Source: a virus
Lineage: Duplodnaviria; Caudoviricetes
Reading direction: 5' to 3' (one strand)
Virus record (IMG/VR): IMGVR_UViG_3300013126_000002
Location: 1 to 63,185 of that record
DNA length: 63,185 bases
The position numbers and the translations under genes are program-made. The notes beneath the pieces were generated by a model. That model worked only from the letters and a program-made list of their open reading frames with translations, was not told the origin of the DNA and did no database searches. Of the stretch, positions 1 through 63,185 are shown piece after piece (the stretch's first letter is position 1; each line of letters starts with the position of its first letter).

Positions 1-123
1 CTTCTCCGCCTCACTCTTGGTGTCGGCAGCGTTGGTCAGCACGTCAGCAATCGACTGTGCGAAGTTAATGCGGTCTTGCGCGGACTTGAACACAATATCC
101 TGCCCTGCGGACGTTACCAGATC
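1..123. repeat. Terminal direct repeat (circular assembly overlap), copy 1
   Basis: 1-123 is identical to 63063-63185 and a reading frame runs through the join. Confidence 0.95.
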
Positions 124-3100
124 GCGCAGGTGGGTAATGTACTCGCGCACGGCCATATTCCGGTTGGCATTTGCCATCTGGTTATAGTGCGCCATAAGCT
201 GGCTGTTGCCCTTGGCTTCCCGGTACGCATCCTTAAGCTGCTTGAACCACTCTACTTCGTGCGGACGCGGTGTGCCGTTGGCCTTGTGGTTGGCAATATC
301 AGCCACCTTTTCGCGCAGCTTCGTAACGGATTCTTCCCACTTGGCGATGGAGTCCTTCAGCGCATTGATGCGTTCCGCCTTGGCGGTCTTCATCTCCAGC
401 TTGGCTTCCTCGATCTTATCTTCCAGTTCCTGAATCTTGTCGCCCGCATTTTCACGTAGCGCATCCTGAGCCTGCATATCACGCAGTTCTTCCAGCGTGT
501 TGACGCGATCCAGCTTGCCCAGCGGTACGCGCAGCAGGGTAGAGTAGGCCATAAGAGCGCTCAGAATGGGGCGCTGTTTCGGGTGGACTTCCAGATGGCT
601 CATCAGGTTGGCGATGTGCTGGTTGGTACGTTCTACCAGTCGAGTAGCCTCAGCCGTTTGCCGCTGGCTGAACTTAACGTATTCGCCGATTTCTGGCATC
701 AGCCGCTTGTACCAAGACGCCAAGTGGTTCAAAGACCCCCAAGCGATCATCTCCTTTACCGTGCCGCCATTAACGTCACGGGTGGAGGTCAGGGAGTCTA
801 ACCATTTCCGAACTGACCCCCATAGGCTGCTCATGGCGGTAGACAATGCGGGAATCTGCTGCACGGTGCCAGCAGTATTGGCAGTCATGTAGCTAACGCC
901 TGTCCGGCCTTGATCAGCCTTATCGATGCCCTTGGCAAGCACTTGCGGGATACTGACGATCTCGGCCAGCACGGACACACGATCTGCGGTAATGGGGATA
1001 CGGAGGATAGCGGCAATCGTCTCGATCAGCGACCGCCATGCCGACTTCTTGGCAATGGGGGCTTCGATATTAGCCAGCGCATTCTGGAACGCGGCGTTGG
1101 ACATGGCCTCAGCGATAAACTCACGCACGTCCTTACCGGCATAGGCGGCAGGGAATGCTGCTGCCAGTTGGCTCTTGGTAAGGTCTTTGAGCCGTTGCAG
1201 GCGTGCAAGTGCGCTCTGCTGGCTATCTGTCAGCAGATGAGGGTTGCGAATGGCGTAGTCCAGCGCTGCATGGGTAATTTCATGTGCGATGGCGTGCATA
1301 CTGCCAGAACTGCCTTCGCTGATGTAGATCGTATTCTCTGCGCCAACGTACGCCCCCAGCGCTGCCGTATTCTTCGGGAAGCGCTTAAGCATCTCCTCCT
1401 TCGTCAGCATCACCAGCTTAACGTCAGGATTGATCAGGCTTGCTACGCGTGCGATCTCGCGCACGATAGGGTTGGTGCGGGTAGCAACACCGGTCAGCAG
1501 ATCGTAGACGGCCTTCATATCACCTGCGGCAATGGCGTCCTTAAGGTCAGCAATATCCTGCTTATCCGCAAGCGTCTTACGCATGGGCTCATAGCCCTTG
1601 GGCGACTTGTCTACTTCGATCTCATCATCTTCGGCTTCACCTGCCTGATCTTCCATGCTTTGCTCAGCGGCCTTACGAGTCTTTCCGGACGGCAGAGCGC
1701 GGCCTTCCGTCACCATAAAGGCGCGGGCCTTCTCGTTCCATATCCGGACAGACTCGCTATCAGTCAGGTCTACCTCCCCGATGGCGTCTACGATCTTGCG
1801 TACGGGGACTCCCGACTTGGCTACCTGCTTCAGCAGCCTCTCATGCGCTGACAGCAGCGATTGGGTAGGCGGAGTCTTCGGCTTGGTTTCTACCTGCACG
1901 GGAGCGGGCTCGGCCTGCGCGGACGCAGCTTCGGCCTTGGCCTGCTTAGCCTCCTTGGCTACCTGTGCTTTGGTCTTCGGCTTGGTTTCTTTAGCTACTT
2001 GCTCTTTGGTTTTGGCGGGCGCAACATTCCCAGCTTCTTGGGCAGGGGCTTGTTCTTGGGCGTTTCCGCTTGCCACTCCTTCGCCAGTTCCGGCTTGTTG
2101 GCGTACATCCACTTGCGCTGCTGCTGGCTTTTGAACGGCATTCTTCTTCCCCTTTACAGGTTTGGCGGCAGGGGCAGGCTCTGCGGCAGCCTGCGCCCGC
2201 TCTTGAACTACCATTTCGTAATCCCGCATGTCTGTGGCAAAGTCAGTCTTGCCACGACGTAGCGCATCCATAAACTGCGGAGCGTTGAGTTCTACGAACG
2301 CAGCGGGGCCTTCCGGGTGCGCGATAGCTGCTTCCCGGTTAGCTGCATACCACTGCTTAGCCGTTTTGACCTGCTCTGCCTTATTAGCGGCAGGCCGTCC
2401 ACCCAACGGAATAACAGGAGCGGTGCGGACAGGGCGCGACTCAGGGATAATGATCTGCCCCGTCGGCTGTTGTAGCGGCGGAAGTTCCGTCGATCTCTGG
2501 GCCACCTGTACGAAGCCGGGGCCCTGCTCAAACACGGGTACAGTGGCCGGAATAGCTGCTGGAAACTCTACTTGCGGTGCGTTGAAGTCCAACCGCCGTT
2601 GCATCGGAGAAACAGGCTGAGCAGGGGCTTCTACGGCAGTCTCTGCCGCAGGGGCTGCTACTTCCCCGCTGGGGGCAAGCGCAAAATTGGGGCGCTCAGG
2701 GGTAAGGGAATACCCGGCATCCGTCGGGGCCAGCGCCATACCGCTCGGAGGCTGTACTGTAGCGGCAGCCTCTTGGGCCGCTTGCAGTTGCGCTGTCAGA
2801 TACTGATTGTACGCGCTCAGGGCAACCTTCATGGCTTGCGGGCTGGGCGTTTCCGACAGTAAATCGGCCTGCACGTCCTCTGGCAATGTCCGCAGGAAGT
2901 CGCCCATACCTATGGCATCAGGTATCGCGTCTCCCATCTGCTGCTTCATAGCTACATACTCGTAGGACAGGTCGCTACGAGTTTTTTCCAGCTCCGCCAG
3001 CTCAGCCCTATCAATAGCTGCCGCATCTGCTTTTTCCACGGCAGCGGTCTGGTCAGGAGTAAGGGTGCGATCAGGCAACGCCCGAATCGGATTGGGTAGC

Positions 3101-4194
3101 CCCAGCGGCATACCTGCTGCTTCAGGGGCTTCAGGGGCTTCCGGAGCTTCCGGAGGTGCGGGCGGGGTGATCCCCGGAGTACGCGGAGCGGGCGGAGATA
3201 CAAGCCCTGCAAATCCGCCACCCACACCACCAAGCAGGCCACCAGCCAGCGCACCTTCAAGTGCCGCATCAATAGCACCATCCAGCACCTTGGTAGCCGG
3301 ATCAATGTACATAGCCCGCGAGGGATTGGTAAGAATCTGCTCAGCGCCAGACTGTACGAATTCTTGGCCGGACTCACGAATCATGCCCTTGAAGGCTTCG
3401 GTGAGCATCTTGGCTCCCGCCACACGGGGGCCAAACAGTGCAGGCAGTACGCCAGCCCCAGCAACAGCAGAGCCGAACAATGTACCTGCGGCAGATAGCG
3501 TAGACGCCTGCTCTGCGCGGGCTTCGTACAACCTACGAGCTTTTACGGGGTCGCCCTGCGCGTCAGCCAAGGCCTTCTGATACCCCTCGGTATCCTGAAT
3601 CTGCTCAGTGCTAAGCGCCTGAAGCTGGTGGCCTACATCGGCAGGCGTCTGTACAGCGGTGACCGCTGCTTCCCCTACCCCGTAAGTAGCCAGATCGCGC
3701 AGGCGCTCTGCGGTCTTCGCCCCTACACCAGTGGCTGTAGCGATACCTTCGGCTGTAGGGGCTACCTTGGCGAGCGTGTTACCCAGCATACCTGCCGGGA
3801 TCATGGACGGTGCGGACTCGGCAGCGCCGTATGCAGCCTTGCGAAGTAGGTTACCTTCGTCCCATGCCTCACCGACAGTCTGGCCGCGAACCTGCTGCGC
3901 TTTCGGGGACAGGTACTTTTCCGTGGTGTCCGCGCCACGATACATGGCTTCGCGGAAGGAACCACCCAGATCACTCAGAAACTGGTTGCCAGTGACATCC
4001 CCAACCATCTTGGTCGGTGTGCCAAGCCCTGCGCCCATGAGCTTCCATGCGCCCATGAACCCCAGACGAGGATAATCCCCGATGCTAGACTCTAATTCCG
4101 TAGAAACGGGGGCCGTAGCCCCCATAGACATAATTTCTTCGTCGGATTTGCCTGCTGCAATCGCCGCTAGAATCTGCTCATCGGTTAGTGCCAT
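1..4194 (-). CDS. Large internal virion/polyvalent protein, N-terminal part (continues at 63062 to 60408; ~2282 aa total), with a zincin-like metallopeptidase domain
   Basis: ATG at 4194 (MALTDEQILAAIAAG) with AAGGG upstream. Absent from the ORF track because no stop occurs in-window. In frame with 60408..63155. HEITH at 1270-1284 and EFIAEA at 1105-1122. Confidence 0.85.
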   Translation of the reverse strand, partial: MALTDEQILAAIAAGKSDEEIMSMGATAPVSTELESSIGDYPRLGFMGAWKLMGAGLGTPTKMVGDVTGNQFLSDLGGSFREAMYRGADTTEKYLSPKAQQVRGQTVGEAWDEGNLLRKAAYGAAESAPSMIPAGMLGNTLAKVAPTAEGIATATGVGAKTAERLRDLATYGVGEAAVTAVQTPADVGHQLQALSTEQIQDTEGYQKALADAQGDPVKARRLYEARAEQASTLSAAGTLFGSAVAGAGVLPALFGPRVAGAKMLTEAFKGMIRESGQEFVQSGAEQILTNPSRAMYIDPATKVLDGAIDAALEGALAGGLLGGVGGGFAGLVSPPAPRTPGITPPAPPEAPEAPEAPEAAGMPLGLPNPIRALPDRTLTPDQTAAVEKADAAAIDRAELAELEKTRSDLSYEYVAMKQQMGDAIPDAIGMGDFLRTLPEDVQADLLSETPSPQAMKVALSAYNQYLTAQLQAAQEAAATVQPPSGMALAPTDAGYSLTPERPNFALAPSGEVAAPAAETAVEAPAQPVSPMQRRLDFNAPQVEFPAAIPATVPVFEQGPGFVQVAQRSTELPPLQQPTGQIIIPESRPVRTAPVIPLGGRPAANKAEQVKTAKQWYAANREAAIAHPEGPAAFVELNAPQFMDALRRGKTDFATDMRDYEMVVQERAQAAAEPAPAAKPVKGKKNAVQKPAAAQVDVRQQAGTGEGVASGNAQEQAPAQEAGNVAPAKTKEQVAKETKPKTKAQVAKEAKQAKAEAASAQAEPAPVQVETKPKTPPTQSLLSAHERLLKQVAKSGVPVRKIVDAIGEVDLTDSESVRIWNEKARAFMVTEGRALPSGKTRKAAEQSMEDQAGEAEDDEIEVDKSPKGYEPMRKTLADKQDIADLKDAIAAGDMKAVYDLLTGVATRTNPIVREIARVASLINPDVKLVMLTKEEMLKRFPKNTAALGAYVGAENTIYISEGSSGSMHAIAHEITHAALDYAIRNPHLLTDSQQSALARLQRLKDLTKSQLAAAFPAAYAGKDVREFIAEAMSNAAFQNALANIEAPIAKKSAWRSLIETIAAILRIPITADRVSVLAEIVSIPQVLAKGIDKADQGRTGVSYMTANTAGTVQQIPALSTAMSSLWGSVRKWLDSLTSTRDVNGGTVKEMIAWGSLNHLASWYKRLMPEIGEYVKFSQRQTAEATRLVERTNQHIANLMSHLEVHPKQRPILSALMAYSTLLRVPLGKLDRVNTLEELRDMQAQDALRENAGDKIQELEDKIEEAKLEMKTAKAERINALKDSIAKWEESVTKLREKVADIANHKANGTPRPHEVEWFKQLKDAYREAKGNSQLMAHYNQMANANRNMAVREYITHLRDLVTSAGQDIVFKSAQDRINFAQSIADVLTNAADTKSEAEK

Positions 4195-34925: not shown

Positions 34926-35270
34926 ATGAAAGACCAAGTAACTTTAACCAAGGAGAAACAAATGAACAGTCAAGCAGAAACTATCACTATCAATGGCGTT
35001 GATTATGTGCGTGCAGATCAAGCCAAACATATCATCGGGAATCGCCAAGTTGTTGTCGTGGATCGTGGTTGGATTTTCGCCGGAGATATGGAGCGCGTTG
35101 ACGGACGTATCAAGCTGACCCGCGCACTCCACGTTTTCAAGTGGGAATCCATCGGCTTTGCAAAGATGGTAGAAACCGCCAAAGCAGACCTGCGCCCGAT
35201 TGCTGATGTTGACATTCCAGCAGACTCCGAAATCTTCTCTATTCCGGTAGAAGAATCATGGGGGCTGTAA
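34926..35270 (+). CDS. Conserved phage protein (DUF6948-like)
   Basis: ITINGVDYVRAD..VVVDRGWIFAG; the start may be at 34962. Confidence 0.65.
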   Translation: MKDQVTLTKEKQMNSQAETITINGVDYVRADQAKHIIGNRQVVVVDRGWIFAGDMERVDGRIKLTRALHVFKWESIGFAKMVETAKADLRPIADVDIPADSEIFSIPVEESWGL

Positions 35271-35512
35271 CGGAGTTTAGACCTGTCGGCTACGGCGACG
35301 GCAACGGCAACGGCAGCGGCTACGGCAACGGCAGCGGCTACGGCGACGGCGACGGCAACGGCTACGGCAACGGCAGCGGCTACGGCAACGGCGACGGCAA
35401 CGGCTACGGCGACGGCTACGGCTACGGCAACGGCGACGGCAACGGCTACGGCGACGGCGACGGCTACGGCTACGGCACTATCAGAAAGAACAACCGGAGG
35501 CGTAGATCATGA
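35258..35512 (+). CDS. Glycine-rich (G-Y/D/N/S) repeat protein
   Basis: GYGDGNG repeats and a basic tail. Confidence 0.65.
   Translation: MGAVTEFRPVGYGDGNGNGSGYGNGSGYGDGDGNGYGNGSGYGNGDGNGYGDGYGYGNGDGNGYGDGDGYGYGTIRKNNRRRRS
35288..35476. repeat. Hexamer tandem repeat GGC(TAC/GAC/AAC/AGC)
   Basis: About 30 consecutive units. Confidence 0.9.
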
Positions 35513-35836: not shown

Positions 35837-36016
35837 ATGACCAAGCGAATCGTTCTTAACCGTGTACTGACGCGCGAGATTGGAAGGCCGGTTAGAACAG
35901 GATCGAGCAGGTACAACAGACAACGCACCTTGAGGATATTCACTAGCTGCCGGTACAGAGGCGGCGTGTGGCTGACCAGAGAGGTAAGGCGCAGCATGAT
36001 GGAGGATTTGAAATGA
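35837..36016 (+). CDS. Small basic hypothetical protein
   Basis: GGAG RBS; ATGA coupling. Confidence 0.5.
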   Translation: MTKRIVLNRVLTREIGRPVRTGSSRYNRQRTLRIFTSCRYRGGVWLTREVRRSMMEDLK

Positions 36017-36348
36017 CCACCAGAGAGGTATTGATTGAGGCGGCACAGGCTGTGCGCTACATACTGGATACTGACACGCCAGATCACGACAACAGAAAGT
36101 TGGAGGTTCGCATAGCCCAAGCAGTCATTGACTGCGTAAAACAAGAAGCCCTCGTTGCCGAGAAGGATGCTGAGCTTGAACGGCTGCGCGCTGAGATTGC
36201 CAAACTTACCAAGTGCATTGAACGGATGCGTGTTGCAGGTGGTTCACAAGAGTTCCACGCGGCGTTTGAACTAGCGAAGGATGCAATTGCGCCAAACAGC
36301 GACCATCACGGAGAGGATTGGACACAACGAGATTCGGAGTATTTGTAA
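36013..36348 (+). CDS. Hypothetical protein
   Basis: GGAGG RBS; coiled-coil segment. Confidence 0.65.
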   Translation: MTTREVLIEAAQAVRYILDTDTPDHDNRKLEVRIAQAVIDCVKQEALVAEKDAELERLRAEIAKLTKCIERMRVAGGSQEFHAAFELAKDAIAPNSDHHGEDWTQRDSEYL

Positions 36349-36794
36349 TGAACTGTTCAAACTGGCCTAGCGCCTACGAAGTATGGGTACAACGCAGTGA
36401 CACTAATCACGGATGGCGGCGGTATAGCATTTATGAATCTTATGAGCAGGCGGAAGCCACGGTAAAACGTGTCGAAGGTGCGCCGCTGGAATTGAAGATT
36501 GTTCCGCTGTATGTCGCAGCACCTGACCAAACAGACGCCCTCGTTGCAGCCACATACATGGCGGCAGCGGATGTGTGTGAAAAAGCAATGCCACTTCATG
36601 CAACCGCTACGGGGGTATATGTTTCAGAAAAAATCCGCGCTCTCACCCCTGCTGATGCGCTGGCAAAGCTCAGGGAGTTGATGCTGGAGGTGGCGACACG
36701 GGCAGCGTTTGATGCGGTACTAAAAGGCGGCAGATCGATGGATGACCTTGAAGCCATAGTAGACGAGGTGCTTGGGAAACGTAAAGCCAAATGA
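36348..36794 (+). CDS. Hypothetical protein
   Basis: GGAG RBS; TAATG coupling. Confidence 0.65.
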   Translation: MNCSNWPSAYEVWVQRSDTNHGWRRYSIYESYEQAEATVKRVEGAPLELKIVPLYVAAPDQTDALVAATYMAAADVCEKAMPLHATATGVYVSEKIRALTPADALAKLRELMLEVATRAAFDAVLKGGRSMDDLEAIVDEVLGKRKAK

Positions 36795-36900
36795 CCGGAA
36801 ACGTAAAGGGGTTCTGCATGGCAATCATTAGAGAGAGCAAAAGTCTTGAAGTGGATGGGTGTGTGGAGAAACGTAAAGCCAGCGAATAGGAAACGTAAAC

Positions 36901-37011
36901 ATGAAACCTAACGTGCGCCGCCCAATGTGGCGGATGCGGGTAGTCAAGTCCCGCAAGGGTAAAGGTAGTTTTAAACGAAAGGAAAAATATGAAACGGCAG
37001 ACAAAGGCTGA
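36901..37011 (+). CDS. arfA: ArfA-like alternative ribosome-rescue peptide (36 aa; not in ORF track)
   Basis: MKPNVRRPMWRMRVVKSRKGKGSFKRKEKYETADKG; matches the ArfA core P-L-F-R-x-R-V-x-K-x-K-K-G-K-G-S-Y-x-R-K; AGGA RBS. Confidence 0.65.
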   Translation: MKPNVRRPMWRMRVVKSRKGKGSFKRKEKYETADKG

Positions 37012-37288
37012 AGTCAGGTACGAACGGCAGGTCAAGGAGTGGCTATATGCACAGCATAATGTGGAGGAGGCCTTGCTTACCTTGGACTATATGGATCAGC
37101 TAATCCGTGATCGGGATGCCGCTGTACGCCACGCGAATTTTGTCTCTGACCTAGGGCTTCGATACAAAAAGACTAGGGACATCTATAAGGCGGTTCTCAG
37201 GGCGTGCAAGGCCGTGGGTACGCCTGAACTGGTGCCCCGTGTGGTGAAGGAAGTACGCCGCATAGTATGGGCAAAGAACATCGATTGA
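36989..37288 (+). CDS. Hypothetical protein
   Basis: AAGGA RBS; 99 aa. Confidence 0.65.
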   Translation: MKRQTKAEVRYERQVKEWLYAQHNVEEALLTLDYMDQLIRDRDAAVRHANFVSDLGLRYKKTRDIYKAVLRACKAVGTPELVPRVVKEVRRIVWAKNID

Positions 37289-37301
37289 AAGGAGGAGGGT
37301 T

Positions 37302-37469
37302 ATGTGCGACAGTCGATTTAGCGTACTGGTGTTTCTGGCCTACTGCCTGCTGTGTACTATCGTAGGTGCGCTTGCCATGTGGCTTGCGCTGAGCGGTACG
37401 CATACGTGCAGTGTAGAGGTTCAGCATACCGATCATGTGGCCGTTTACATTACCGAGTGCAAGATATAG
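37302..37469 (+). CDS. Small membrane protein (not in ORF track)
   Basis: AGGAGG RBS; one hydrophobic segment. Confidence 0.6.
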   Translation: MCDSRFSVLVFLAYCLLCTIVGALAMWLALSGTHTCSVEVQHTDHVAVYITECKI

Positions 37470-37516
37470 ACTAGCAATTCGGCCTCACCTTTATTGCGAA
37501 AGCAGCCCAAGATATT

Positions 37517-37795
37517 GTGATGATTATCTTAAACCGAGGTGGGGCCGATTCTACTTGGGGAGGTAGTGTGGAAGGTACGATCAAAGTTAATAACGTCTTG
37601 ATGCCGATGATGCCGTACGGCTGTCACTCGGACAATTCCCCCGACAGATTCAAAGAACCCCTGCTCACCAATGGCCGCGTGGTATGGCCGCACCGCATGA
37701 GTACGCAGTGCAGGTACGATGGGCGCGAGCGCGACCAGCGATGCGCCGAGTGCGAGCATGTGTGGGATACCGCGTACGTCGAAACCCTTATCTAG
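37517..37795 (+). CDS. Hypothetical Cys-containing protein (start uncertain)
   Basis: PYGCH...MSTQCRYD...RCAEC. Confidence 0.55.
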   Translation: MMIILNRGGADSTWGGSVEGTIKVNNVLMPMMPYGCHSDNSPDRFKEPLLTNGRVVWPHRMSTQCRYDGRERDQRCAECEHVWDTAYVETLI

Positions 37796-37803
37796 GAGCC
37801 TTT

Positions 37804-37989
37804 ATGGAGAAACTGGCAACAATCATCCCGCAGGATAGATGGTGGCGCAGAGGGGAGTGCGTAGTGCGTATTCTCAGTCGCGGCCATTACCCTGACACCG
37901 CATGGGTACGTCTGCCCAACGATGTAGAAACCGAGGTCTACATCAGCGATCTTGAGAACCCGCCTCCTCTACCCGTTAACGGACAGTGA
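37804..37989 (+). CDS. Hypothetical protein
   Basis: AGGAG RBS. Confidence 0.6.
   Translation: MEKLATIIPQDRWWRRGECVVRILSRGHYPDTAWVRLPNDVETEVYISDLENPPPLPVNGQ
37967..37988. promoter_or_regulatory. 22-bp palindrome copy 13 (degenerate)
   Basis: ctCTaCCCGTTAACGGACAGTG. Confidence 0.55.
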
Positions 37990-37991
37990 TC

Positions 37992-38279
37992 ATGAACATT
38001 CTTGAAGAAGCCCAAAGCATTATCTATGGTGACCGCGAGCAGACGTACGGCCACCCCGCCAAGAACATCAACCACATCGCCGCGCAGTGGACGCTATACC
38101 TCCACCAGCGCCACGGCATAGTAGTGACACTTACTGCCGAGGACGTGTGCTGGATGATGGTAGACCTTAAGAAAACCCGCCAGATGAACGCACAGAAGCG
38201 GGATAACGTAGTGGATGGCGCAGGCTATCTAGCCCTTATCGAACGTATTGGAGAACACAATGGAACTGCTGACACTTGA
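37992..38279 (+). CDS. DUF6378-like protein
   Basis: ILEEA..IIYGDR..TYG.P and DN.VDGAGY motifs. Confidence 0.7.
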   Translation: MNILEEAQSIIYGDREQTYGHPAKNINHIAAQWTLYLHQRHGIVVTLTAEDVCWMMVDLKKTRQMNAQKRDNVVDGAGYLALIERIGEHNGTADT

Positions 38280-40068
38280 TTTCGAAACATTCTATTCCAA
38301 GGACTACACGCTCAAGAAACTGACCACCGAGGGGTACATCCGCGACTCGCGCTTCAAGGCGCACGGCTGTGGGTTTAAGTGGAATGAGGAGGGTAGTTTC
38401 TGGGTCTCCGGCAAGGACTTGCCCGCCTTCTTTGAGGCAAACCGCACGCGTATCGAACAGGCTGCTGTACTGGCCCACCACGCGCATTTTGACGGGCTCA
38501 TCCTGTCGCATCATTACGGCATTGTGCCCAAGGCCTACTTCGACACCCTGAGCATGGGACGGGTACTGCACGGCCACGACGTTGGCGGCTCACTGGCTAA
38601 GCTGGTGGCGCACTACAAACTGCGCCGCAAGATGTCGGAGCGGCTAGTTGCTACAATGGGTATCGAGGAACTTGGCCCTGATCTGGAGACGGCGCTGGCC
38701 GAATACTGCTTGGGTGACGTGGATAACACCTACGACCTGTGCCAGATTTTCCTGCCGCAGTTCAAGCGTACCGAGCTGAAGTTCATCGACATCACCGTCA
38801 AGATGTTCACGCGCCCGCTGCTTACACTGGATACCGCCCTGCTGGAAGAAGCTGAGCGCCGTCTTGCCGAAGATATTGACGGGCTGCTGCGCGAAGCAGG
38901 GGTGGACAACAAGGAGGTGCTGCGGAGCGATGCCAAGTTTGCCGAACTGCTTGGCGCGTACATCGGCCCTGAGAACGTCCCGACCAAGATCAGCAAGACG
39001 ACGGGGTTGCCCGCATACGCGTTCGCCAAGACGGACAAGGCGTTCACCGATCTTGTGGATAGTGGCGACCCCACGGTAGCTGCACTGGTGCTGGCACGGC
39101 TTAGCACCAAGACCAGTATCATGGTCTCCCGCACTGCGCGTATGTCCGCTATGGCGAAGCGCGGCCCCGCGCCCGTCTACATCAAGTACGCAGGCGCTGT
39201 GCAGACGCACCGCACGTCAGGCGGCGACAAGATGAACTGGCAGAACCTCAGCAAGGGTAGTGTCCTGCGTAAGGCCGTCATGGCTCCGGAAGGCTACGTG
39301 CTGGGGGTGTGCGATAGCTCCAACATCGAGTCACGCGTACTGGATACGCTGGCAGGGCAGATGGACGCTGTGCAGCGCTACCGCGACAGGCAAGACCCCT
39401 ATACGCACTTGGCATCCAAAATCTACCACCGCGTCATCACCAAGGAGGACGCCGATGAGCGCCAGTTGGGCAAGGTGGCTAAGTTGGGGCTGGGGTTCGG
39501 CATGGGGGCGAAGAAGTTTAAGGTCACGGCTCAGAACTGGGGCATCAACATTGACGACGAGATGGCGTTCAATACGGTGGAGACCTACCGCAATACCCAC
39601 GGCAAGGTAGTCGAGCTGTGGAACAGGGCAGGGTTCGCCATCGAGGCCATGTCGAAGGGTATGCGCGTGAATGTCGATTCGGCGGGTCTAGTTGTCACGG
39701 ATGTTCAGTCCCTGATCCTGCCGAATGGCCTGCGCCTGCGCTATCCGCAGTTGCGCCGAGGGCGTGACGGGTGGGAGTTTTTCAACGGGAAATTCTGGAC
39801 AAAAATCTACGGCGGTAAGCTGGTAGAAAATATCGTTCAGGCACTTGCGCGGATCATTGTTTCGGAGCAAACTGTCCTTATCGCGCGTGAACTTCCCGTC
39901 GTAATGTTCGCGCATGACGAAGCTGTGACCCTAATGCCGGAGGCAACGGCTGATGCAGGGCTCAGTTACATGCTGGAATGTATGCGTACACCACCTGAGT
40001 GGTGGCCGACTGTTCCTATTGGTGCTGAAGCGGGGTATGCTGTACGTTACAGTGACGCCAAAAAATAG
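38260..40068 (+). CDS. Family A DNA polymerase with 3'-5' exonuclease
   Basis: Exonuclease LDFET, HFDG, YCLGD; motif A DSSNIESR; motif B RQLGKVAKLGLGFG; motif C HDE. Confidence 0.92.
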   Translation: MELLTLDFETFYSKDYTLKKLTTEGYIRDSRFKAHGCGFKWNEEGSFWVSGKDLPAFFEANRTRIEQAAVLAHHAHFDGLILSHHYGIVPKAYFDTLSMGRVLHGHDVGGSLAKLVAHYKLRRKMSERLVATMGIEELGPDLETALAEYCLGDVDNTYDLCQIFLPQFKRTELKFIDITVKMFTRPLLTLDTALLEEAERRLAEDIDGLLREAGVDNKEVLRSDAKFAELLGAYIGPENVPTKISKTTGLPAYAFAKTDKAFTDLVDSGDPTVAALVLARLSTKTSIMVSRTARMSAMAKRGPAPVYIKYAGAVQTHRTSGGDKMNWQNLSKGSVLRKAVMAPEGYVLGVCDSSNIESRVLDTLAGQMDAVQRYRDRQDPYTHLASKIYHRVITKEDADERQLGKVAKLGLGFGMGAKKFKVTAQNWGINIDDEMAFNTVETYRNTHGKVVELWNRAGFAIEAMSKGMRVNVDSAGLVVTDVQSLILPNGLRLRYPQLRRGRDGWEFFNGKFWTKIYGGKLVENIVQALARIIVSEQTVLIARELPVVMFAHDEAVTLMPEATADAGLSYMLECMRTPPEWWPTVPIGAEAGYAVRYSDAKK

Positions 40069-60407: not shown

Positions 60408-63185
60408 TCAAAAGTTAAGGTTTTCATAGGCATAGGCGGCGTCACGGCGGCTCATACCCAACATGCCGGTATCCGTAGTCAGCCCGATCTGGCGTTCCAA
60501 TGCGCGGCGGCGAAGCCCCTCTGCAATACCGGTAATCGGGTGTTCCGCGTGCTTGGCATTGTACTCCTCCATACGCTTCTGCCAGTACTGACGATTCTCG
60601 TCATTCTTGCTCTCGATTGCGTAATACAGGTTGTCACGAATGCGCTCGCGCTTCATGTTGATGACGGCTTCGCGGGTACGCATGTACCGCCCCTTTTCTT
60701 CCGCCGTGGCCTTCTCGGACGGCTTGAAGCCCATCGCAGTCAGGGCGACCATGTAGGGGGAGGTCTCTACCGGAATCTTGTTTCCGGCAGCGTTGATGTA
60801 CCCCTCGTTATACACCATGCGCGTAGCGCGGAACATGTCCCGCACAAATGTCGGCATACCTTCAATGCCGCCATCGATAGTGGTGAGCGGCGTCGGGGCC
60901 CCGATCAATGTATTCTTTGTCACGCTGGCTCCGGCCATAGCCATCTGATAGAGCCCGATAACCATGTTGAACGCGGGAGATGCCTGCGACCAGCCAGCAG
61001 AGTCTTTCAGCTTGTCCTCAAATGTCCGCTGATCCGCGAAGAACCGGCTGCCGGGAATAATGTCTGCCTGCCCTGCACGGGTGGATAGATCGACGCCCAG
61101 CGCATTGGGAATACCCTTGGTCAGCAGTTCGCCGCCCTTATCGCCCAGCATTGCTGCGGCGTACTGGCGCATGGCAAGACGTACATCCCAAGGATCATCG
61201 TCCTTATCTCCGGCGATAGCAGCGACCATGTTGATCGCAGCGGCAATAGCCGTAATGAACGGCAGCCCCAAGGCCCCGGCGTAAACCATCGTCATACCAA
61301 GTAGCCCGACCAGTGCGGTCTTGGCCTCAGCGGCCATAAGTTTGGCCTCTGCAACGGCCTTCTTGGCCTTTTCGATCTCGTTAACCGTAGCCGTATAGCG
61401 CGTATTCTCGCGCAGCCGGGCCTCAGCGTCCTTCAGTTCTGCCGTAAGCTGAATACGCACGGCCTTGCGATCCTTGCCTGTAGCCTCCTTGATCTTCTGC
61501 TCCAGATCGGCAATCAGCTTCTCGGTAGCGGCCTTGTCCAGCGACTTGATCTCGGAAGGGAACGCTGCTTCGCGGGCCTCGGCATCAGCCAGTTCGGCCT
61601 GTGCCTGTCGGAGTTGATACCCGACAGCCTCGGAGATAGTACGGATGTGCAGCTCCAGCAACTGCGCGTTGAACTGCTGAAACGTAGCGACCAAGGGGGT
61701 GACCTTGCCGAGGAACCCATGCTTGCCCAACGCGCGGGCCACGTTAATGGCCGTGTAGCTGAACTGCGTATCACGAACTGCCTTCAGCGCGAAATCTGCT
61801 GCGGCTTCCGCAGTGGGCAGGGCACGGGCGTGTTTGGATCGTGCCAGTCGATAAGCAGCCAACCCGACAACCAGCCGGTTAGCTACTTCGGCGTAGTGGT
61901 TGGTCAGGCCAGCAGTCTTGGACAGCCGCGAGGTAGTATCGCTCTGTTCGGCTTCCAGTCGGGTAATTTCACGGGTGATACCGAAGTTCACTTCCCCGGA
62001 GTCCAGTGCCTGCTGGATAAACGCCCGTTCATCAGCGGTCAGGTTGGTGAAGTGTTCGTCCGCAATCAGCGTAGCGTTCAGGAACTTGTCCAGATACGCC
62101 TTGCCCCCTTCAGCAGATGCGGCCTGTTGCTTGGTGGCCTCAAACAGCGCTGCCAAGCCGGTCTTAACATCGCCGTAAGCCTTGTACATCTCAGCCGTAG
62201 CCATACGATACCCGAACCGCCCGCCAAGGATAGGCAGCGAGATTTGGGTCGGTTGCAGCAGGTTAAGTATCAGGTATGCAGGGCTCAGAGCCAGATAGGT
62301 GGTGTACGCCCCAGACCGCAGCAGATCGATCAGCGGGGTTTCAATCGGGTCCATCGCATTGGCATGGCGCAGCCGCAGCTCATCGTACACGCGCTTCGCG
62401 TCTACGGCACTGGCCGAGTGGTTGGCCTCCATCGTACGAACAGACTGGTTCATGCTGTTGAACGACTCGTTGATCAGCGGCAGGTACAAGTGGTTGGCGA
62501 AGTACCGGTGCGAATTCACTGCACGATCTGCATAGCTACGGATCATCTCATCCAGCTTGAAGCCGGGAACAGCCTCGCGGCGGGTTAGCGCCTTACGGAC
62601 AGACCCTTCAGGGAGCATAGCCAACCAGCTATTACGGGCAGCAGCCTTCATCGAGTTCTTCTGCTTGTCCGTGACATTCAGCCGGTCGATCTCACCCAGC
62701 ATACGGTTCAGGAATTCCGGCGTAACGGCATTAGCCTGCACGGAGGACTCGTCGCTAAGTTGCCCCCACCCATAGGCCTTCAGTTCACCACTGGCTACTT
62801 CCTTCTCCAGCTCAGCGCCACGGGCCTGCATCTCGCGCTGTGTTGCAAACCGCTCAAACCAGCGTACGCCATCATTGTCTTCGTAGGATACGAAATAATC
62901 GCCGAAGCGGCCTACGTGGAAGTACGGGGAGCGCTCAGCCATCCGCACGATCTTCTGCATCACGCGCATTTCCTTGACCACTTCCATACGGCGGGCCGGG
63001 TTCTCCATCTTGGCTACGACTTCAGCAGCCTTGTCTTCCACCAGCTTACGGGCAGCATCCATCTTCTCCGCCTCACTCTTGGTGTCGGCAGCGTTGGTCA
63101 GCACGTCAGCAATCGACTGTGCGAAGTTAATGCGGTCTTGCGCGGACTTGAACACAATATCCTGCCCTGCGGACGTTACCAGATC
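60408..63185 (-). CDS. Large internal/polyvalent protein, C-terminal part with PLxRFG-like domain
   Basis: PYFHVGRFGDYFV at ~62890-62927; in frame with 1..4194 across the circular join. Confidence 0.85.
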   Translation of the reverse strand, partial: DLVTSAGQDIVFKSAQDRINFAQSIADVLTNAADTKSEAEKMDAARKLVEDKAAEVVAKMENPARRMEVVKEMRVMQKIVRMAERSPYFHVGRFGDYFVSYEDNDGVRWFERFATQREMQARGAELEKEVASGELKAYGWGQLSDESSVQANAVTPEFLNRMLGEIDRLNVTDKQKNSMKAAARNSWLAMLPEGSVRKALTRREAVPGFKLDEMIRSYADRAVNSHRYFANHLYLPLINESFNSMNQSVRTMEANHSASAVDAKRVYDELRLRHANAMDPIETPLIDLLRSGAYTTYLALSPAYLILNLLQPTQISLPILGGRFGYRMATAEMYKAYGDVKTGLAALFEATKQQAASAEGGKAYLDKFLNATLIADEHFTNLTADERAFIQQALDSGEVNFGITREITRLEAEQSDTTSRLSKTAGLTNHYAEVANRLVVGLAAYRLARSKHARALPTAEAAADFALKAVRDTQFSYTAINVARALGKHGFLGKVTPLVATFQQFNAQLLELHIRTISEAVGYQLRQAQAELADAEAREAAFPSEIKSLDKAATEKLIADLEQKIKEATGKDRKAVRIQLTAELKDAEARLRENTRYTATVNEIEKAKKAVAEAKLMAAEAKTALVGLLGMTMVYAGALGLPFITAIAAAINMVAAIAGDKDDDPWDVRLAMRQYAAAMLGDKGGELLTKGIPNALGVDLSTRAGQADIIPGSRFFADQRTFEDKLKDSAGWSQASPAFNMVIGLYQMAMAGASVTKNTLIGAPTPLTTIDGGIEGMPTFVRDMFRATRMVYNEGYINAAGNKIPVETSPYMVALTAMGFKPSEKATAEEKGRYMRTREAVINMKRERIRDNLYYAIESKNDENRQYWQKRMEEYNAKHAEHPITGIAEGLRRRALERQIGLTTDTGMLGMSRRDAAYAYENLNF
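63063..63185. repeat. Terminal direct repeat, copy 2
   Basis: Identical to 1-123. Confidence 0.95.

Follow-up and report, generated by a model that had tools for sequence, protein, structure and literature searches.

A 36-codon open reading frame in an uncultured, N4-like-looking lake phage of 63 kb is identified here as a genuine homologue of the ribosome rescue factor ArfA, with a family match that, at the level of sequence, goes beyond chance. The same comparisons place it as a derived, N-terminally shortened offshoot of the mini-ArfA group of phages and Pelagibacter, of which it appears to be an atypical member. The preferred reading, to which a probability of roughly 0.45 is given, is that the peptide would be a constitutively made, RF2-dependent minimal rescue factor in which a Met-Trp pair stands in for a lost helix.

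The DNA analysed (the window, 63,185 nucleotides) is an IMG/VR record of 63,185 bp that carries direct terminal repeats and has a completeness rating of 100%. DNA near-identical to it is contained in lake-water metagenome runs, no RNA run being listed among them, an absence that carries no information on expression. PHROG matches to a large terminase, a portal-like adaptor and a major head protein indicate a tailed phage, and by capsid protein the nearest cultured phages are Pseudomonas phage Rollin (42% identity), Stenotrophomonas phage StenR_269 and Xanthomonas phage DES1. A replication cluster occupies ~25 to 49 kb on the plus strand and encodes a DNA polymerase, a helicase, a primase-helicase, a PD-(D/E)XK nuclease and ThyX; the ArfA-like ORF lies inside this early/middle cluster, amid small uncharacterized genes and 1.2 kb 5' of the DNA polymerase gene. 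No tRNA or tmRNA was found in the whole genome, nor any translation-related match (Pfam, PHROGs) among the neighbours. Searches of deposited phages by tblastn with the peptide and by megablast with positions 36000-39000 gave no match, the tblastn blank being possibly due to the low-complexity filter. Two minus-strand ORFs extend off the record, one at either end: 1-4194 (1,398 aa, 3' open) and 60408-63185 (925 aa, 5' open). They have weak virion-RNA-polymerase-like and DarB-like PHROG matches and may be one very large gene (~2,300 aa) that was split where the record was opened. At 35258-35512 on the plus strand, an 84-aa ORF that adjoins the next gene is composed almost entirely of Gly-Tyr-Gly-Asn/Asp repeats (GYGNGSGYGDGDGNGYG...) followed by a basic tail, and has no significant family (best match E 7e-4, under the cut-off).

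The locus is laid out as follows.

36776..36899, plus strand: two 32-nt direct repeats with four exact copies of GAAACGTAAA, around a 32-aa ORF at 36791..36889 (from the sequence)
36874..36876, plus strand: in-frame TAA that bounds the frame upstream (read from the sequence)
36888..36891, plus strand: Shine-Dalgarno-like AGGA, 9 nt 5' of the ATG (read from the sequence)
36897..36991, plus strand: 95-nt block, 96.8% identical between the window and contig L164 (blastn)
36901..37011, plus strand: 36-aa ArfA-like ORF, ATG at 36901, TGA at 37009-37011, product MKPNVRRPMWRMRVVKSRKGKGSFKRKEKYETADKG
36901..36921, plus strand: residues 1-7, MKPNVRR, the sole remainder before the conserved Pro (alignment A2, N-terminus census)
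36922..36945, plus strand: residues 8-15, PMWRMRVV, aligned with E. coli ArfA Pro23-Glu30 (alignment to PDB ArfA chains)
36946..36990, plus strand: residues 16-30, KSRKGKGSFKRKEKY, basic KGKGS tail aligned with E. coli ArfA 31-45 (PDB alignment)
36989..37288, plus strand: downstream 99-aa gene, its ATG inside the ArfA-like ORF, 23-nt overlap (ORF list)

The preliminary description had proposed this 36-aa frame, its AGGA ribosome-binding site and an in-frame stop at 36874, and the sequence bears these out: the open frame holds 44 codons, with zero start codons between the TAA and the ATG. The predicted RNA fold of 36860-37060 is no better than that of shuffled sequences (z -0.22), the ORF has no Rfam match and no terminator-like site was found inside the frame. 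Given its own TGA and the lack of a hairpin or terminator in frame, that is, without the non-stop control of arfA, the peptide should be made whenever the operon is translated. The downstream 99-aa gene is without a match in Pfam, NCBIfam and the PHROG families, and neither it nor the neighbouring 158-aa gene has relatives among viral contigs.

The 32-nt direct repeats sit 92 nt apart, and at 0 mismatches GAAACGTAAA occurs nowhere else in the window. The repeat segment, ~113 bp, is missing from the sister contig L164 and supplies the window's present Shine-Dalgarno region; at this junction, directly 5' of the ArfA-like gene, it represents an insertion or a duplication, and it may have no part in the gene's function. 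The repeated motif resembles the 5' end of the ArfA-like gene itself (ATGAAACCTAACGT). The upstream 32-aa ORF was considered as a detached ArfA N-terminus and rejected, having no Pfam match at E<=10 and a VEKRKA likeness that stems from the repeated DNA. Two antisense ORFs (36670..37035 and 36828..37004) were likewise set aside, with a best family E of 0.07, under the cut-off, and bounds that differ from those of the conserved block.

ArfA-like identity had been proposed with an HMM search as its check and the lack of a profile match as one refutation. That refutation did not come about: the Pfam profile for ArfA (PF03889) gives 39.7 bits, above its cut-off of 25.5 (E 3.3e-10), peptide residues 5-30 falling on positions 18-43 of a 44-position model. 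A six-frame search of the whole 63-kb genome gave a single PF03889 match (E 5.1e-11, 38.8 bits). At E<=10 the only PDB sequences recovered are six E. coli ArfA chains (E about 5e-4), and in the full-length chain 5H5U_3 residues 21-46 align with residues 6-31 of the peptide; the E. coli stretch quoted in the preliminary description appears in this alignment, which together with the Pfam match also upholds its claim that the KGKGS core is kept. In the protein atlas, 29 of 30 feature matches are ArfA clusters of 33-39 aa, while no model in NCBIfam or PHROGs matched the peptide.

Two functional parts of ArfA are recognisable in this alignment. Residues 16-32 correspond to ArfA 31-47, a putative channel tail that reaches the Asn47 equivalent with KGKGS invariant, and WRMRVV falls on FRQRVE (E. 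coli 25-30), the candidate RF2-pairing strand. Across the 29 sequences of alignment A2, G20, K21, G22, S23 and R26 are invariant. The peptide's tail ends in KY where a KH motif stands, and KY is also found in long canonical forms, for example P0023. The N-terminal minidomain (E. coli ~2-20, including Ile11, Ala18 and Leu19) is absent, as are the non-stop mRNA and hydrophobic C-terminal extension of E. coli-type regulation, the ORF having its own TGA and a tail that ends at 36 aa. That most of the N-terminal region and the hydrophobic C-tail are lacking, as first described, is visible in the family alignment. By the informal features of phage and Pelagibacter mini-ArfAs, the size, stop codon and core agree, no helix is present and M-W stands in the place of K-[YF].

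The short N-terminus is shared by two relatives from metagenomes, of 35-36 aa, which with the phage peptide make up the known clade. P0001 (35 aa) is identical to the phage peptide over residues 1-30; P0002 (36 aa) starts Met-Thr-Lys-Pro-Asn and differs in the core only by K16R, F24Y, K25R and E28D, all conservative. The tail after Tyr30 varies among the three variants (ETADKG, AKDFT, EKDFT), which fits the reported dispensability of E. coli residues past Asn47 (PMC5378476), and the Arg-Met-Arg-Val-Val strand is as well conserved within the clade as the basic tail is. When the peptide was searched with phmmer against 1.84 billion representatives, its own cluster alone was recovered at E<=0.001, short length and library size limiting such a search. 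A DNA pattern for PMWRMRVV picked out 22 stretches in metagenomes, one a true relative (L164) and 21 due to chance, and the single viral stretch was also a chance match. A search for longer or fused forms gave a weak negative: 136 candidates yielded nine proteins at E<=1, each of them an ordinary ArfA-type protein of 78-112 aa at <=40 bits, and none of the clade.

The contig that carries P0001 (L164, 3,873 bp) derives from a mosaic sister phage that shares its gene order with the window, running from a homologue of the upstream gene through the ArfA-like gene and a DUF6378 gene to the DNA polymerase. Both flanks of the 95-nt block are unrelated or rearranged between the two. In L164 the end of the upstream gene runs directly into the ATG, with GAGGTG 8 nt 5' of it, and the downstream genes, which are unrelated (99 aa in the window, 105 aa in L164), begin at the same ATG. 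The L164-type junction is also present in one contig of a lake-water run that contains the window's own form, so both genotypes co-occur. Positions 1-139 of L164 are 98.6% identical to window 36409-36547, after which homology returns only at the C-terminus of the 158-aa gene; a 290-aa ORF (L164 241-1113, plus strand) lies within the stretch that corresponds to the window's unbroken 158-aa gene, and has the appearance of a gene insertion.

Ranked last among the four readings considered, and improbable, is that the ORF is a functionless or decaying mini-ArfA remnant that lost its 5' part on recombination and is carried between real genes. An ArfA match at E<=1 was found in 0/30 DNA-polymerase relatives from IMG/VR (34-50% identity), including 0/11 that are >=90% complete, and in 0/3 of the nearest cultured phages; the gene is by these absences accessory, placed at a mosaic junction and dispensable for the lineage. 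This, with the rearranged flanks and a clade of only three known members, represented by a single cluster in the phmmer search, is consistent with a remnant. Against it, all three variants, which differ at 13% of residues, preserve an intact frame, start and length, with core changes that are conservative only, and the two coding differences from L164 are both synonymous (Pro8 CCA/CCG, Lys16 AAG/AAA). A Shine-Dalgarno sequence is present in two different upstream contexts, and the 95-nt block is among the best-conserved segments, at 96.8% identity versus about 70-73% in other segments common to the window and L164. Together, the intact frame, the pattern of substitutions and the recurrent Shine-Dalgarno sequence argue, on sequence grounds, for a translated gene under selection.

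Small ArfA-family genes proved to be widespread. With a profile of the three clade sequences, 172 of 221 candidate proteins of 19-77 aa matched at E<=10, and 120 of the matches were listed; most of those listed carry PF03889 and many are only 35-49 aa. The nearest relatives (P0003-P0014) are 64-73% identical and have PKYRMRVV..KGKGSFKRKEK[YH] in common. A strict back-translated motif, R-V-[VI]-x-x-[KR]-K-G-K-G-S-[FY]-x-R, was then used, for which less than one chance match is expected in IMG/VR by the analysis's own estimate. It gave 118 listed stretches in IMG/VR (about 180 estimated from 42/64 parts scanned) and 120 in GTDB species genomes (about 500 estimated from 16/64 parts scanned). Two classes make up the bacterial matches. 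Pelagibacteraceae contigs, up to 966 kb in length, carry mini forms (35-42 aa) that have a stop of their own, and long forms (60-110 aa) come from Vibrio, Photobacterium, Rheinheimera, Alishewanella, Haemophilus and others. The viral matches include mini forms, a 63-68-aa type akin to the one in HTVC027P, a Pelagibacter phage, and longer lysine-rich proteins with the core embedded in them; similar mini genes are carried on viral contigs of 127-360 kb (L050, L085, L087).

Several of these loci merit separate mention. An ArfA-like core (NP[MV]AK...VVKPKKGKGSYTRK) is embedded in longer lysine/glycine-rich viral proteins at L042, L083, L098 and L149 (121 aa), and in five further loci (L058, L101, L119, L121, L142) the protein with the embedded core exceeds 150 aa and is open at the locus end. 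ArfA-like ORFs of Caulobacter phage Cr30 (11142-11261; H17/H18) and Pelagibacter phage HTVC027P (15783-15932; H16) were deposited as 'hypothetical protein'. Many Pelagibacteraceae single-cell and metagenome genomes (within L176-L295) carry an ArfA-family gene of 35-42 aa with its own stop, and a 2024 survey reports arfA in 0/2,376 Alphaproteobacteria (PMC11633108); SAR11 bacteria may possess an overlooked ArfA-type factor, and some of the contigs could be phage-derived.

ArfA-like mini-genes in phages are not new, and a short, stop-bearing form is common. Citromicrobium phage RXM g10 is annotated as ArfA (PMC8953757), and gp30 of HTVC027P is reported to have an ArfA domain and to be highly expressed both early and late (PMC12753301); in the literature searched, no functional study of any phage ArfA was found. 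The novelty implied by the preliminary description is reduced to this extent, since phage ArfAs are already annotated and common in viral contigs, and stop-bearing forms of 35-42 aa are the normal chromosomal form in Pelagibacteraceae. What sets the clade apart is a narrower point than the one first described, namely its loss of the helix.

The significance of that loss follows from reported structures of the E. coli complex (PMC5378476, PMC8012679). ArfA's C-terminal end sits in the empty mRNA tunnel, residues 25-29 pair with RF2 213-217 and Pro23 packs on A1492/A1493; the Pro23-Glu30 stretch comprises the decoding-centre contact, two hydrophobic-patch residues and the beta-strand paired with domain 2 of RF2. 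The inactive complex has a compact RF2 and disorder in ArfA residues 2-16; in the active one, the N-terminal minidomain is ordered between h69 and RF2, the Leu19/Leu24/Phe25 patch holds Trp319 of the RF2 switch loop, and Ala18 packs against Ile11 and C1914, its replacement in A18T giving a protein that recruits RF2 without release. E. coli ArfA is described as active if truncated at Asn47 and inactive if truncated after Met40 (PMC5378476). As aligned, the phage peptide appears to keep all parts that are ordered in the inactive complex and two of the three patch positions (as Met-Trp), without the rest of the minidomain.

In alignment A2 the first residue of the clade falls 5-6 columns later than that of the mini forms and 15 later than that of the long forms. 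The peptide begins at about E. coli residue 16, with no similarity before residue 21 and no counterpart of Ile11, Ala18 or Leu19. It has 12 residues before the RVV arginine, versus >=16 in all 118 listed viral loci; even when the longest possible N-terminus is taken, <=13 residues were found in 0/118 listed viral and 1/120 listed bacterial loci, the lone exception being a doubtful relative from Bacillus (L222), with one bacterial locus (L265) left unscored as its start codon is absent from the available stretch. The combination of an Asn at R-14 with hydrophobic R-12 and Leu, Val, Ile or Met at R-8 is complete in 92/118 listed viral and 115/120 listed bacterial loci and is missing here. As the motif pattern omits the N-terminus, this comparison is unbiased by the way in which the loci were selected. 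Set against the MK.N-PVA[RK]D-LRTPKYRMRVV... of the nearest relatives, the clade's MKPN-VRRPMWRMRVV looks like the product of a loss of about five residues, including the conserved Ala. The unusual point thus appears to be the loss of a short conserved helix that even other mini forms keep; in the portion of PMC12646239 available, nothing on N-terminal truncations was found.

The Met9-Trp10 pair is likewise, as far as the matches indicate, lineage-specific. The position of E. coli Phe25 is Tyr/Phe in 98/118 listed viral and 119/120 listed bacterial loci; Trp stands there in 1/118 and 0/120 respectively and, among the 96 motif-bearing proteins of the 120 listed from the profile search, only in P0001 and P0002. 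Where E. coli has Leu24, Met is seen in 0/120 listed bacterial and at most 1/118 listed viral loci.

The missing helix is one ground for a serious rival, considered unlikely though by no means negligible, in which a 'headless' ArfA blocks rescue; the preliminary description had put forward such a dominant-negative blocker alongside constitutive rescue. Such a peptide would dock in the vacant channel and lock RF2 in its compact, inactive form like ArfA(A18T), denying tmRNA-SmpB, and any ArfA or ArfB of the host, access to non-stop ribosomes, or titrating RF2; the phage might thereby prevent the tagging and degradation of products of its own processed mRNAs, or shut off the host. The parts that are missing are those reported as disordered in the inactive complex and required by the active state (residues 2-16 plus the fold at Ala18; PMC5378476), A18T is described as recruiting RF2 without release (PMC8012679), and the helix loss is clade-specific and kept across three variants. 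A synthetic peptide of the SmpB C-terminal tail has also been reported to inhibit tmRNA-SmpB binding (PMC8012679), so tail peptides can block. However, trapping ribosomes would also reduce the capacity for translation available to the phage itself, the retention of two of three hydrophobic-patch positions as Met-Trp suggests that the RF2 switch-loop contact is still wanted, and no phage inhibitor of rescue was found in the literature searched. A complex prediction for the peptide (A2) with RF2_ECOLI scored 0.00 against a mark of 0.32, without control runs, and bears on neither reading.

The conservation of the basic tail could instead reflect a ribosome-binding peptide whose use is other than RF2-dependent rescue, for example in the mRNA channel of vacant 30S or 70S particles, where it might modulate initiation, favour phage messages or protect idle ribosomes. 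The best-conserved part of the peptide is indeed this channel tail, with its five invariant residues, and ArfA-like cores are reused in longer lysine-rich phage proteins of 121 to >150 aa. Such a role is nevertheless rather unlikely: the RF2-pairing strand Arg-Met-Arg-Val-Val is equally conserved in the clade, and according to the literature available ArfA binding to the channel requires that it be empty, which points to non-stop ribosomes.

The rescue reading is favoured by the ArfA homology (PF03889; only ArfA chains in the PDB) and by the retention of Pro23, the aromatic residue at 25, Arg26, Arg28, Val29, KGKGS, Arg41 and Lys44, with a tail that extends past the Asn47 equivalent. It is favoured further by a gene that looks selected, by the lack of arfA-style non-stop control (own TGA, z -0.22, no Rfam match), by the frequency of small stop-bearing ArfA-family genes, of which HTVC027P gp30 is reported to be transcribed (PMC12753301), and by ArfT, an unrelated release factor-dependent factor of only ~40 aa (PMC8012679). 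It is weakened by the absence of the conserved N-terminal helix, A18T inside that fold being reported to abolish release (PMC5378476, PMC8012679), and by the dispensability of the gene for the lineage (0/30 and 0/3 kin).

From the gene, its homology, its conservation and its architecture, we infer the following course of binding and release for a rescue factor. With its own stop codon and no in-frame hairpin or terminator, the peptide would be made whenever the operon is expressed. Its basic KGKGS tail would enter the vacant mRNA channel in host ribosomes that have stalled at the 3' ends of truncated mRNAs. Pro-Met-Trp-Arg-Met-Arg-Val-Val would lie in the A site and pair as a beta-strand with domain 2 of host RF2. 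Met9-Trp10 would take over the contact to the RF2 switch-loop Trp that Leu19/Leu24/Phe25 make in E. coli ArfA, and host RF2 would then free the nascent chain. The benefit to the phage would be ribosome recycling, independent of tmRNA status, when mRNAs are cut, whether by phage-induced decay of host mRNA or by RNA-cleaving defence or toxin systems.

The clade appears to be the smallest natural version of ArfA and, because it keeps only the parts that are bound in the inactive E. coli complex, it offers a clean natural test of whether RF2 activation needs the N-terminal fold. If the peptide rescues ribosomes, the minimal need for switching on RF2 is far smaller than work in E. coli implies; if it blocks, phages own an anti-rescue weapon. 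A natural anti-rescue factor, an ArfA without its RF2-activating head that disables host handling of non-stop ribosomes or shields phage products from tmRNA tagging, is unlikely though not negligible; no viral inhibitor of ribosome rescue in bacteria would have preceded it, and it would be a ready-made 36-residue lead for rescue-blocking peptides.

Among known systems, ArfT of Francisella (~40 aa) and BrfA of Bacillus are likewise very small, basic, release factor-dependent rescue factors, evidence that a length of about 40 residues can be enough (PMC8012679), but they are non-homologous by the papers' account and BrfA is regulated via non-stop mRNA. E. coli ArfA (YhdL; PF03889; PDB 5U4I, 5MDV/5MDW, 5MGP, 5H5U, 7OJ0) is homologous over residues 21-46 and has in common with the phage peptide the decoding-centre Pro, an aromatic residue, the Arg-x-Arg-Val strand, KGKGS and a basic tail that ends in Lys plus an aromatic residue or His. 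In contrast to it, the phage peptide is without an equivalent of residues 1-15, shows no similarity over 16-20 (no Ala18 or Leu19) and lacks the hydrophobic C-tail; it is phage-borne and has its own stop codon with no in-frame hairpin. ArfA(A18T), whose N-terminal fold cannot form, is reported to bind non-stop ribosomes and recruit RF2 (PMC8012679, PMC5378476); it is a full-length laboratory point mutant, whereas in the phage peptide the segment is naturally absent. The mini-ArfAs of 35-45 aa (Pelagibacteraceae and many phages, among them HTVC027P gp30, RXM g10 and the Cr30 locus) are of the same family and share the small size, own stop and core, but keep the N-x-[IV]-A-x-x-L helix, with 16-22 residues before the RVV arginine where the clade has 12, and carry Lys/Leu-Tyr/Phe where the clade has Met-Trp.
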